Source: a phage. Taken from it: a stretch of DNA of 64,000 nucleotides. Below are positions 10,126-11,528 of this stretch, piece by piece; within the stretch, counting starts at the first letter, position 1; every line of letters starts with the position of its first letter. Both the position numbers and the translations under genes were made by a program. Location of the stretch: the sequence record PZ154895.1. The stretch is one strand, 5' to 3'. The notes below the pieces were generated by a model. It was given only the letters and a program-made list of their open reading frames with translations. It had not been told where the DNA came from and made no database searches.

Positions 10126-10198
10126 TGGGAATTAGCCAAGTTGGTAAGGCACTGGATTTTGATTCCAGGATGCAAAGGTTCGAGTCCTTTATTCCCAG
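10126..10198 (+). tRNA. tRNA-Gln (anticodon UUG)
   Basis: 7 bp acceptor tgggaat/attccca, anticodon stem ctgga/tccag, loop ttTTGat, T-arm GGTTCGAGTCC. Confidence 0.85.
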
Positions 10199-10199
10199 C

Positions 10200-10286
10200 G
10201 CGAGAATGGTCAAATTGGTAAAGGCACAGCACTTAAAATGCTGCGGAATGATTTCCTTGTGGGTTCGAGTCCCACTTCTCGCACCA
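10200..10286 (+). tRNA. tRNA-Leu (anticodon UAA), long variable arm, encoded CCA
   Basis: acceptor gcgagaa/ttctcgc, anticodon stem cagca/tgctg, loop ctTAAaa, T-arm GGTTCGAGTCC. Confidence 0.85.
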
Positions 10287-10291
10287 AATTT

Positions 10292-10365
10292 GCGGATATC
10301 GTATAATGGTATTACCTCAGACTTCCAATCTGATGATGTGAGTTCGATTCTCATTATCCGCTCCA
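10292..10365 (+). tRNA. tRNA-Gly (anticodon UCC)
   Basis: acceptor gcggata/tatccgc, anticodon stem tcaga/tctga, loop ctTCCaa, T-arm GTTCGATTC. Confidence 0.85.
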
Positions 10366-10369
10366 ATTT

Positions 10370-11020
10370 ATGACTCGTCGTGAGACGCTCAGTTCTTTAT
10401 TAGGGACTGATATGCATTTTTATCTTTATAAAATAACAAATAAAATTAATAATAAAATTTATATTGGTGTGCATTCTACCGAAAATTTAGATGATGGATA
10501 TATGGGTTCTGGTAAATTATTAAAAAGAGCCCAAGACAAGTATGGTATAGAAAATTTTTCTAAAGAAATATTAGAGTATTTTGATGATAAAGAATCTATG
10601 CTTGAAGCCGAGAAAAATATTGTTACAGAAGAGTTTTTAAATAGACCAGATGTGTATAATTTAAAACTTGGCGGTGAAGGTGGATGGGACCACATAAATA
10701 ATTATCCTATGACAGATCAGCAACGCGAATTAATTTCATTGGGTGTTAAAAAGGCACATTCTAACGGAAAATTAAAAGGATGGTCTTCAAATGGATTAAT
10801 GAAGAATGGCTTTGCTGGTAAAACTCATTCTCAAGAAGCTAAACGTAAAATAGCAAAAGCAAACGAAGCAAAAGTTTCTGCGGATGAAAGAAAAAGAAGA
10901 ATAGAAATTTCTAAATTATATGATTTTTCTAAGCGTGGTGAATTATCTAAATATGCTAAGCATATTGGCGTAAGTCATACTCAAGCAAAAAGAATTCTAA
11001 ATCAAATTAACAATATATAA
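10370..11020 (+). CDS. segB: GIY-YIG homing endonuclease (SegB-like) inside the tRNA cluster
   Basis: 216 aa; GIY-YIG motif (FYLYKITN...KIYIGV); embedded between tRNA subclusters as T4 segB is. Confidence 0.8.
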   Translation: MTRRETLSSLLGTDMHFYLYKITNKINNKIYIGVHSTENLDDGYMGSGKLLKRAQDKYGIENFSKEILEYFDDKESMLEAEKNIVTEEFLNRPDVYNLKLGGEGGWDHINNYPMTDQQRELISLGVKKAHSNGKLKGWSSNGLMKNGFAGKTHSQEAKRKIAKANEAKVSADERKRRIEISKLYDFSKRGELSKYAKHIGVSHTQAKRILNQINNI

Positions 11021-11026
11021 ATATTT

Positions 11027-11116
11027 GGAGGCGTGGCAGAGTGGTTTAATGCACCGGTCTTGAAAACCGGCAGTCGCTCCGGCGACTCATAGGTTCAAAT
11101 CCTATCGCCTCCGCCA
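11027..11116 (+). tRNA. tRNA-Ser (anticodon UGA), long variable arm
   Basis: acceptor ggaggcg/cgcctcc, anticodon stem ccggt/accgg, loop ctTGAaa, T-arm GGTTCAAATCC, CCA encoded. Confidence 0.85.
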
Positions 11117-11121
11117 GTTTT

Positions 11122-11197
11122 GCTGATTTAGCTCAGTAGGTAGAGCAACTCACTTGTAATGAGAAGGTCGGCGGTTCGATCCCGTCAATCAGCACCA
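11122..11197 (+). tRNA. tRNA-Thr (anticodon UGU)
   Basis: acceptor gctgatt/aatcagc, D-arm AGCTCAGTAGGTAGAGC, loop ctTGTaa, T-arm GGTTCGATCC. Confidence 0.85.
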
Positions 11198-11198
11198 A

Positions 11199-11273
11199 GG
11201 CCCTGTAGCTGGAAGGTTCAAGCAAGCGACTCATAATCGCCAGATGGTGGTTCAATTCCACCCAGGGCCACCA
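11199..11273 (+). tRNA. tRNA with CAU anticodon (Ile-lysidine type or Met)
   Basis: acceptor ggccctg/cagggcc, loop ctCATaa, T-arm ggtgg-ttcaatt-ccacc. Confidence 0.75.
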
Positions 11274-11282
11274 AATTAATTT

Positions 11283-11369
11283 GGGGAGTTATCCCGTAGA
11301 GGTAGCGGTGTGGACTGTAAATTCATTGTCATTGCGACTCGGGTGGTTCGACTCCATCACTCCCCACCA
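11283..11369 (+). tRNA. tRNA with long variable arm, probable Tyr (anticodon GUA); D-arm non-canonical
   Basis: acceptor ggggagt/actcccc, loop CTGTAAA as in bacterial tRNA-Tyr, T-arm ggtgg-ttcgact-ccatc, CCA encoded. Confidence 0.55.
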
Positions 11370-11373
11370 ATTT

Positions 11374-11448
11374 GGATGTGTAGCTCAATGGCAGAGCGAT
11401 CGCCTGTTAAGCGATTGGTTATAGGTTCGAATCCTATCACGTCCGCCA
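11374..11448 (+). tRNA. tRNA-Asn (anticodon GUU)
   Basis: acceptor ggatgtg/cacgtcc, anticodon stem atcgc/gcgat, loop ctGTTaa, T-arm GGTTCGAATCC. Confidence 0.75.
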
Positions 11449-11452
11449 AATC

Positions 11453-11528
11453 CGAGGCATAGCTCAGAAGGAAGAGCAAGGACCTTCTAAGTCCTAGGTC
11501 GTAGGTTCGATCCCTACTGCCTCGACCA
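11453..11528 (+). tRNA. tRNA-Arg (anticodon UCU)
   Basis: acceptor cgaggca/tgcctcg, D-arm AGCTCAGAAGGAAGAGC, anticodon stem aggac/gtcct, loop ctTCTaa. Confidence 0.85.

Follow-up and report, generated by a model that had tools for sequence, protein, structure and literature searches.

A 64-kb stretch of the phage sequence record PZ154895.1, here called the window, carries a cluster of tRNA genes at positions 10126-11528. The cluster is split between tRNA-Gly and tRNA-Ser by a gene for a GIY-YIG homing endonuclease. Judged from sequence comparison, it is an ordinary tRNA gene cluster of a T4-like coliphage (Tequatrovirus), of the allele type found in T2L, RB51, and HY01. The locus is very probably a T-even operon of tRNAs and stable RNAs that includes a functional tRNA-Tyr, a tRNA-Ile2, and a mosaic homing endonuclease that has replaced tRNA-Pro.

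The tRNA genes

Run on the entire window, ARAGORN returns exactly nine tRNA genes, all on the + strand and all in this cluster. They are the same nine, with matching starts, ends, and identities, that a first-pass annotation made from the sequence alone had claimed. The Rfam tRNA family (RF00005) accepts 8 of the 9 above its gathering threshold, at 59-74 bits against a cut-off of 29. ARAGORN finds no tRNA-Pro in the 64-kb window.

The cluster begins with tRNA-Gln (UUG; 10126-10199; 67.4 bits), which matches the tRNA-Gln of T4 and T2L at 66 of 74 positions. Next come tRNA-Leu (UAA; 10200-10286; 59.3 bits), with a long variable arm, and tRNA-Gly (UCC; 10292-10365; 65.8 bits). Both are identical to their T4 and T2L counterparts, over 87 and 74 nucleotides. 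The diverged tRNA-Gln allele beside two genes of 100% identity forms a sharp local mosaic boundary.

Beyond the endonuclease gene lies tRNA-Ser (UGA; 11027-11116; 62.6 bits), which has a long variable arm and equals that of T2L at all 90 positions. It is followed by tRNA-Thr (UGU; 11122-11197; 70.6 bits), matching T4 at 72 of 76 positions and missing from T2L, and by a tRNA with a CAU anticodon (11199-11273), identical over 75 nucleotides to a T2L gene labelled “Met”. The class II tRNA-Tyr (GUA; 11283-11369) is the same in T2L and RB68 over its 87 nucleotides. The last two are tRNA-Asn (GUU; 11374-11448; 74.1 bits), identical to T2L tRNA-Asn (75/75), and tRNA-Arg (UCU; 11453-11528; 68.1 bits), which agrees with T2L at 75 of 76 positions and with T4 tRNA-Arg at 51 of 83 aligned positions.

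The 2.6 kb around the cluster are 96-98% identical to the Tequatrovirus phages HY01 (KF925357; 97.6%), NR1 (LR990704), phiC600P9, RB51 (FJ839693), RB68 (KM607004), and AR1 (AP011113). The GenBank record of RB68 has the same order as the window throughout: Gln, Leu, Gly, a “truncated SegB-like protein”, Ser, Thr, the CAU tRNA, Tyr, Asn, Arg, a hypothetical ORF (open reading frame), and the stable-RNA genes rnaD and rnaC. NR1 and AR1 have an additional tRNA-His between tRNA-Asn and tRNA-Arg that the window lacks. Labels for the endonuclease vary among the records of these relatives, from “truncated SegB-like” to “segD” and “homing endonuclease”. A search of IMG/VR for relatives by the upstream ORF gave only 6 loci, and the survey used the GenBank phage collection instead.

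The cluster of T2L (AJ880101), with its Tyr and Asn genes, was sequenced for a study of SegB and published in 2008 (Brok-Volchanskaya et al. 2008, PMC2330249). T2L shares with the window identical Leu, Gly, Ser, CAU, Tyr, and Asn genes, as well as the trna.2 ORF, rnaD, and rnaC. Unlike the window, it has kept tRNA-Pro, lacks an intact endonuclease gene, and has a remnant ORF, trna.1, in place of tRNA-Thr. Since the RB68 annotation lists these nine tRNAs and a T2L cluster containing Tyr and Asn has been published, the arrangement is not new. GenBank and two papers already contain the nine-tRNA order, the genes for Tyr and Asn, and the SegB-like ORF, and dozens of phage genomes are annotated with the arrangement.

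T4 has the operon frame in common with the window (Gln, Leu, Gly, then Ser, Thr, and a CAU tRNA, then Arg, rnaD, and rnaC), and its flanks are 94-96% identical to the window flanks. The order in the T4 record is Gln, Leu, Gly, Pro, Ser, Thr, Ile, segB, Arg, rnaD, rnaC, which agrees with the eight T4 tRNAs that the first-pass annotation had listed. Unlike the window, T4 has tRNA-Pro, lacks tRNA-Tyr, tRNA-Asn, and a 116-residue ORF downstream, and carries segB between tRNA-Ile and tRNA-Arg. Its Ile and Arg alleles also differ. The loss of Pro and the extra Asn and GUA-anticodon tRNAs that had been noticed at first pass thus hold up, both in the ARAGORN output and against the T4 record.

The CAU-anticodon tRNA and codon usage

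The tRNA with the CAU anticodon is best read as a lysidine-dependent tRNA-Ile2 that would decode AUA, and not as a tRNA-Met. It diverges from T4 tRNA-Ile past nucleotide 12, and it occupies the slot that tRNA-Ile has in T4. Its best full-length match among 5,426 E. coli genomes is a gene named tRNA-Ile by the Prokaryotic Genome Annotation Pipeline (PGAP), with 81.6% identity over 75 nt. Between the two, the 17-nt anticodon stem-loop does not differ at all, and the acceptor end is GGCCC/GGGCC in both. The sequence also has the pairs C4-G69 and C5-G68, which are determinants for TilS.

Alternatively, it could be an elongator tRNA-Met, which is the label used by ARAGORN and in all GenBank records. 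The CAU anticodon itself is the reason to consider this, together with the label “Met” given by ARAGORN and in the annotations of T2L, RB68, and AR1. Both the E. coli match, with its shared anticodon stem-loop and acceptor end, and the position in the T4 tRNA-Ile slot argue against it. Codon usage points the same way: in 93 window ORFs compared with 42 annotated E. coli K-12 genes, AUA is enriched 4.1-fold, whereas AUG stands at 0.88-fold. An elongator tRNA-Met is therefore very unlikely. An initiator tRNA is ruled out by the paired G1-C72 in the sequence. With the CAU tRNA read as tRNA-Ile2, the functional set relative to T4 would be the T4 set minus Pro, plus Tyr and Asn.

Other A-ending or rare codons are over-used in the same comparison. 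Besides AUA (Ile), the enrichment is 7.2-fold for AGA (Arg), 3.4-fold for UCA (Ser), 3.0-fold for ACA (Thr), 2.9-fold for GGA (Gly), 2.7-fold for UUA (Leu), 1.5-fold for CAA (Gln), and 1.4-fold for CCA (Pro). Seven of the tRNAs would read such codons over-used by an AT-rich phage, namely CAA, UUA, GGA, UCA, ACA, AUA, and AGA. Since CCA is the least enriched of the A-ending codons, loss of tRNA-Pro(UGG) would have been cheap.

The first-pass annotation had proposed comparing Tyr and Asn codons between phage and host. Both are enriched in the window ORFs relative to E. coli K-12, Tyr codons together 1.8-fold and Asn codons together 1.5-fold, and codon supply is thus a plausible benefit of the two tRNAs. 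An anti-defence role of tRNA-Asn is speculation. Together with the Tyr and His tRNAs, tRNA-Asn belongs to the queuosine GUN-anticodon group that is cleaved by colicin E5; a defence system that targets tRNA-Asn was not shown in the literature searched.

A tRNA-Tyr with a shifted D-arm

The gene at 11283-11369 is the tRNA that Rfam does not accept. It fails the gathering score of RF00005, and its best match in the clan is tRNA-Sec, with 29.9 bits against a cut-off of 47. ARAGORN accepts this long-arm, GUA-anticodon tRNA as Tyr, which was the check proposed at first pass, and a note in the AR1 GenBank record states that tRNAscan-SE 1.23 accepted a copy differing by 1 nt. The gene matches T6 tRNA-Tyr at 86 of 87 nucleotides, and the single difference turns a G.U of the T-stem into a G-C pair.

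Evidence for the fold comes from natural variants. These were collected from IMG/VR with a search pattern that left the stems unspecified except for the 5' acceptor strand, which gave 62 loci with 18 distinct sequences. On the cloverleaf, 99.3% of the cells in this alignment are paired, and 8 pairs are changed on both sides. None of 500 shuffles matches this, and slid registers drop to 44-63% paired. Folding of the single sequence by minimum free energy gives a structure other than the cloverleaf (z = -0.65) and is uninformative.

The same variants place the D-arm. A D-stem shifted by 2 nt, pairing 12-15 with 23-26, is 100% paired and includes an exchange of C-G for U-A. With no more than 55.6% paired, the canonical register (10-13 with 23-26) was discarded. 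The D-arm then consists of a 4-nt connector (nt 8-11), a 4-bp stem, and a 7-nt AGRGGUA loop. This shifted but conserved arm is plausibly why covariance models under-score the tRNA. The unusual D-arm suspected at first pass is therefore real, with a register shifted by two. The accompanying suspicion of a pseudo-tRNA did not survive the identity to T2L, the distance of 1 nt from an expressed T6 gene, and the covarying cloverleaf.

The tRNA carries a GUA anticodon loop, a discriminator A, a long variable arm, and an encoded CCA. These are the features used by the tyrosyl-tRNA synthetase of E. coli. The anticodon loop, the discriminator A, and the CCA are invariant in the 18 variants, the anticodon loop having been preset by the search pattern. 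By its sequence, then, the gene appears to encode a functional class II tRNA with a non-canonical but conserved D-arm.

The near-identical T6 homologue has been studied experimentally. T6 tRNA-Tyr is detected on northern blots, its over-expression rescues T6 from the Septu system PtuAB, and T6 escape mutants amplify the gene (Chihara et al. 2026, PMC13096335). Like the host tRNA, it is cut by Septu at C48, and it is reported to be relatively unstable (PMC13096335). The T6 tRNA would supplement, or act as a decoy for, the host tRNA-Tyr that the PtuAB nuclease destroys. In the window the 5' strand of the variable arm, GUCAU, which contains the Septu-cut C48, is the same as in the host and T6 tRNAs. 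The window gene can be called equivalent in sequence to the anti-Septu tRNA-Tyr, relief from the immunity of Septu or retron-Eco7 having been shown for T6 alone (PMC13096335). Its setting is different: in T6 the gene is directly adjacent to segB and the two are amplified jointly, whereas in the window about 260 bp, holding the tRNAs for Ser, Thr, and Ile, separate it from another SegB variant upstream.

It has to be asked whether the GUA-anticodon RNA might be a pseudo-tRNA or a pure decoy, which would soak up a nuclease directed at host tRNA-Tyr and have no use in translation. The low Rfam score and the non-canonical 4-nt connector before the D-stem would fit such an RNA. So would the cleavage and apparent instability of T6 tRNA-Tyr, for which the authors write “decoy or supplement” (PMC13096335). 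Yet compensatory changes preserve all four stems and the variable-arm stem, and the discriminator A and CCA do not vary, nor does the preset GUA loop. ARAGORN accepts the tRNA, as tRNAscan-SE 1.23 did the AR1 copy, and the phage over-uses Tyr codons. A role as a mere decoy is thus improbable, and a functional tRNA-Tyr is the preferred reading, although it may serve as a decoy in addition to decoding.

The endonuclease gene

The first-pass annotation had placed a GIY-YIG endonuclease gene where the cluster is split, and this is confirmed. The sole ORF in the 661-bp gap between tRNA-Gly and tRNA-Ser reaches 26.8 bits with the Pfam GIY-YIG family (PF01541; cut-off 22.6). It is a homing-endonuclease gene of the free-standing type, encoding 202 residues, at 10412-11020 on the + strand, identified by its GIY-YIG and NUMOD3 domains, an AlphaFold 2 (AF2) model, and comparison with SegB. 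It most likely starts with the ATG at 10412. An ATG at 10370, which would give 216 residues, was rejected because the extension is out of frame in Klebsiella phage KP13MC5-5 and because the T6 and RB68 annotations begin with MHFYLYK.

The gene is preceded by a 46-nt 5' untranslated region (5'UTR; 10366-10411, + strand), recognised by its fold and its homology to the region upstream of T6 segB. A hairpin at 10389-10410, with a 9-bp stem formed by CAGUUCUUU and AGGGACUG, buries the AGGGA Shine-Dalgarno sequence (centroid fold, z = -2.1). A similar occluding hairpin has been proposed for T4 segB (PMC2330249). The 5'UTR is also kept in KP13MC5-5.

Several lines of evidence relate the protein to I-TevI. 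A profile search finds I-TevI (1LN0) with E = 0.004, while phmmer gives no match in the Protein Data Bank (PDB). In the AF2 model (pLDDT 81.8) the confident catalytic domain matches I-TevI 1MK0 with probability 1.0 and a template-modelling (TM) score of 0.63. Residues 124-135 are of low confidence and are followed by a confident C-terminal helical module. NUMOD3 scores above the Pfam cut-off with the C-terminal half alone, which ends in a motif resembling a helix-turn-helix. Compared with PDB folds, the C-terminal module gives nothing significant, the helix-turn-helix matches being weak (E > 0.4). Residues Y6, Y17, G19, E67, and N83 are invariant across 29 homologues.

The protein is thus like I-TevI in its catalytic fold, the low-confidence stretch between domains in the model, NUMOD3, and a helical C-terminal module, by prediction a helix-turn-helix. 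It differs in being free-standing and not intron-encoded, in having no recognisable zinc finger, and in its low identity (about 26%, in the catalytic domain only).

A SegB catalytic module with another DNA-binding half

Residues 1-96 of the endonuclease are near-identical to T6 and T4 SegB. The similarity breaks off after “...GGEGGWDHIN”, and the remaining 106 or so C-terminal residues give no alignment to T4 or T6 SegB. At the nucleotide level, 10357-10700 match T6 segB and the sequence upstream of it with 97.7% identity, beyond which the similarity ends. Y17 and G19, residues whose mutation kills T6 SegB (PMC13096335), are present.

What is shared with SegB is therefore the 5'UTR, the first 96 residues, and the state of a free-standing gene within a tRNA cluster. 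The slot is different. In the window the gene lies between Gly and Ser and replaces Pro, T4 segB lies between Ile and Arg and replaces Tyr and Asn, and T6 segB lies between Tyr and Arg and replaces Asn. Conversely, the T4/T6 segB slot holds Tyr and Asn in the window. The first-pass label “SegB-like” accordingly fits residues 1-96 and neither the unrelated C-terminal half nor the Gly/Ser slot, which is not the Ile/Arg slot of T4. Sequence comparison makes the gene an apparently intact mosaic, in which a SegB catalytic module and 5'UTR are joined to an unrelated NUMOD3/helix-turn-helix half, and not a plain SegB orthologue. The label “segD” used for AR1, HY01, and NR1 was rejected as well: T4 SegD is 38% identical, mainly in the catalytic half, where SegB reaches about 97%.

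The DNA-binding half would belong to a separate lineage, found after tRNA-Gly both in Tequatrovirus and in Klebsiella phages of the genus Jiaodavirus. The Jiaodavirus phage KP13MC5-5 (OP617748) has a full-length orthologue directly after tRNA-Gly. Compared with this orthologue, the N-terminal half has a synonymous divergence (dS) of 2.1 and a ratio of nonsynonymous to synonymous divergence (dN/dS) of 0.10; for the C-terminal half the values are 0.35 and 0.32. The discordant dS values suggest that the two halves have different histories, with both under purifying selection. In GenBank the KP13MC5-5 orthologue (2213-2887) is unannotated, and its stop codon lies inside the tRNA-Pro that follows.

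The two SegB variants have not been found together. A concatenated query of both C-terminal coding halves hits 196 records, each in one place, and none of them covers both halves. The variants thus appear to be mutually exclusive in the sampled phages.

The window in turn has the target of the other variant. The preferred 27-bp site of T4 SegB has been mapped in T2L tRNA-Asn (PMC2330249), and the same site, GGTTCGAATCCTATCACGTCCGCCAAA, is present at 11424-11450 in the tRNA-Asn of the window. It has all five bases (G6, A16, G18, A26, A27) that set the preferred site apart from a weaker site in tRNA-Ser (PMC2330249). Because its tRNA-Asn carries this site, the phage would be a recipient for a T4-type segB.

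Two phages with the T6 type of segB have other gene orders. In Shigella phage SH-2 (PQ642267; 1900-2870), a T6-type segB directly follows a segment homologous to tRNA-Gly that ARAGORN does not call; the tRNAs called are Leu and Arg only. The arrangement resembles a deletion caused by recombination across the segment of about 340 bp, 5'UTR plus N-terminal part, that the SegB variants have in common. Phage T6 itself (AP018814; 1757-2968) is without Pro and Ser tRNAs, so that Thr follows Gly, and its SegB is mis-annotated as a “serine recombinase”.

The insertion site and the loss of tRNA-Pro

Homology to phages that carry tRNA-Pro (T4, T2L, and two IMG/VR genomes) ends at 10370, 5 nt past tRNA-Gly, and resumes at 11026. 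The 655-bp cassette between these points substitutes exactly for the spacer and tRNA-Pro. Among GenBank phages, Gly-Pro-Ser is contiguous in 448 records and Gly-endonuclease-Ser is found in 57, KP13MC5-5 being one of the 57. In sampled records with the empty site, the Gly and Ser flanks are up to 100% identical to the window. Presence/absence polymorphism, conserved flanks, and sharp boundaries together mark the gene, as far as sequences can tell, as a free-standing mobile element.

These data bear on a second view of the gene, namely that it is a decaying, truncated, and inactive remnant of SegB and that tRNA-Pro was lost through an unrelated deletion. In its favour, the protein has 202 residues compared with 221 in T4/T6 SegB, its C-terminal half cannot be aligned to them, and the RB68 and RB51 labels say “truncated”. 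Moreover, a true fragment exists in T2L, where trna.1 is 41% identical to part of the C-terminal domain only and has no nuclease domain. The ORF in the window is intact, however, and 56 records have its C-terminal domain with an identity of 95% or more. The orthologue in another genus has the same length and shows the low dN/dS ratios given above. A family alignment contains dozens of full-length homologues of about 200 residues that keep NUMOD3 and the terminal helix-turn-helix. The catalytic half is near-identical to the biochemically active T6 SegB, Y17 and G19 included, and the edges of the deletion are exactly the edges of the cassette. Decay of a former SegB is thus very unlikely beside an intact mosaic endonuclease.

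Loss of tRNA-Pro has occurred in two genera. In Jiaodavirus the empty site is Gly-AATTA-Pro, with a T4-type tRNA-Pro, in about 121 records. In KP13MC5-5 this native gene is gone, and the endonuclease gene is followed by a foreign tRNA-Pro allele, which T5-like Salmonella phages such as STG2 carry with 100% identity. Since occupied alleles in both genera have lost the native tRNA-Pro, the target is inferred to lie in or beside that gene. The endonuclease would cut an empty Gly-Pro-Ser allele in or adjoining the native T4-type tRNA-Pro gene, and repair templated by the donor would then copy the endonuclease gene in and remove tRNA-Pro.

A more far-reaching proposal is that a natural domain swap has retargeted the SegB module to tRNA-Pro or the Gly-Pro junction, so that the element erases Pro and competes with T4/T6 segB. 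It is plausible and still falls somewhat short of probable. If it is true, the two SegB variants are alleles of the T-even tRNA operon that exclude and attack each other. Clusters like the one in the window keep the T4 SegB site in tRNA-Asn, T4-type clusters keep the Gly-Pro-Ser site, and homing of either variant removes a tRNA gene, not the same one in the two cases. Competition between endonucleases, beyond codon demand alone, would then decide the tRNA repertoire of T-even phages, and the pair of variants would be a natural experiment in how the specificity of GIY-YIG enzymes is rewired by exchange of a DNA-binding module. A retargeted, mutually exclusive SegB variant is the sole, modest lead past the literature found.

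A competing explanation does without homing to the Pro slot. Here the nuclease, like T6 SegB, is relaxed in specificity, and the phage keeps it for the breaks it makes, which lead to tandem amplification of neighbouring anti-defence genes, tRNA-Tyr among them. The catalytic domain and 5'UTR are those of T6 SegB, which drives such amplification (PMC13096335). The SegB core motif GGTTCRANTCC occurs seven times in the window, compared with 0.15 expected by chance, and all seven copies are clustered inside the tRNA locus. In addition, SegB homologues are generally enriched beside tRNA genes. What speaks against a relaxed nuclease is that the target of modular GIY-YIG enzymes is set by the C-terminal domain (I-TevI, per PMC2330249), and this is the domain that differs here. 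Moreover, insertion directly after tRNA-Gly recurs in two genera with loss of the native tRNA-Pro each time, and a recurrent insertion point argues for a specific site. The relaxed nuclease is thus rather unlikely as a replacement for homing. The two roles are themselves compatible, and an enzyme that homes to the Pro slot might also drive amplification.

Some points weigh against the reading of the operon as a whole. The score of tRNA-Tyr is below the Rfam tRNA threshold, and the instability and Septu cleavage of the T6 tRNA may leave a decoy instead of a translational role (PMC13096335). The annotators of RB51 and RB68 regarded the endonuclease gene as truncated. The target of the endonuclease is inferred solely from what the occupied alleles lack. 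T4/T6 SegB is relaxed for T-arm motifs of tRNAs, six such motifs remain in this cluster, and self-cutting may occur. Finally, a scan for sigma-70 promoters performed no better than on shuffled sequences, and no promoter is claimed.

For annotation, the reading would turn a “Met” tRNA into a tRNA-Ile2 and a “truncated SegB” or “segD” gene into an intact mosaic endonuclease, and would add a tRNA-Tyr with a conserved, shifted D-arm. It also offers a testable picture of how the tRNA repertoire of T-even phages is edited.

Relatives of the endonuclease and other edited slots

Erwinia phage FBB1 (MT920315) has a full-length homologue with 51% identity at 2434-3181, between tRNA-Pro and tRNA-Ala in a cluster of 16 tRNAs. 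The homologue overlaps the 3' end of tRNA-Pro, which again places the family beside a Pro tRNA. An ORF of the T5-like Salmonella phage STG2 (992-1501) that abuts tRNA-Pro was also considered and was rejected as a relative, having no significant similarity to the window protein. It does show a GIY-YIG-like motif, “GYVYLISNP...FKVGC”.

In Shigella phage CM8, an ORF for an HNH-type endonuclease (1247-1855) stands in the position of tRNA-Gln. Over its last 24 residues it is similar to the helix-turn-helix in which the window endonuclease ends (E = 9e-5), and a DNA-binding module may therefore be common to different nuclease families, HNH in CM8 and GIY-YIG here. CM8 also lacks Tyr and Asn. Including the trna.1 remnant in the Thr slot of T2L, every slot in which the compared phages differ is occupied by a nuclease gene or what is left of one: the Pro slot in the window, the Asn slot in T6, those of Tyr and Asn in T4, that of Gln in CM8, and that of Thr in T2L.

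A different oddity occurs on a T4-like contig, IMGVR_UViG_2974739009_000001. Beside a reduced Met/Arg cluster, ARAGORN calls a 94-nt “tRNA-Stop” at 5580-5673 with the anticodon UUA, which could be similar to an ochre suppressor.

The ends of the operon

The cluster is preceded on the + strand by a leader (10029-10125), presumed to be the promoter region. It lies within a block (9700-10370) that is 95.8% identical to T4, which has a middle promoter just 5' of its tRNA cluster (PMC2330249).

Downstream of tRNA-Arg, and likewise on the + strand, lies an ORF of 116 residues (11545-11895), the “trna.2 protein” of T2L, to which it is identical at 113 of 116 positions. It belongs to PHROG 3355, of unknown function, and has no match in Pfam. 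The ORF is conserved in T2L, RB68, and AR1 and absent from T4, and the beginning of rnaD overlaps with its stop codon.

The two stable-RNA genes follow on the same strand. The first is rnaD (species 2; about 11892-12011), which matches T4 rnaD at 103 of 118 positions and has the same position in RB68 and T2L. The second is rnaC (species 1; 12018-12156), which matches T4 rnaC at 137 of 139. After rnaC comes a strong predicted intrinsic terminator (12207-12238, + strand), in which a run of T follows a stem of 10 bp, 7 of them G-C. One precursor transcript would run from 5' of tRNA-Gln to this terminator and would be processed to the nine tRNAs, rnaD, and rnaC. The place of the terminator agrees with the published single transcript of T4, which ends past the species I RNA gene (PMC2330249). 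Within rnaC, at 12134-12144, there is a perfect T-arm-like sequence, GGTTCGAATCC, which is also the SegB core recognition motif.

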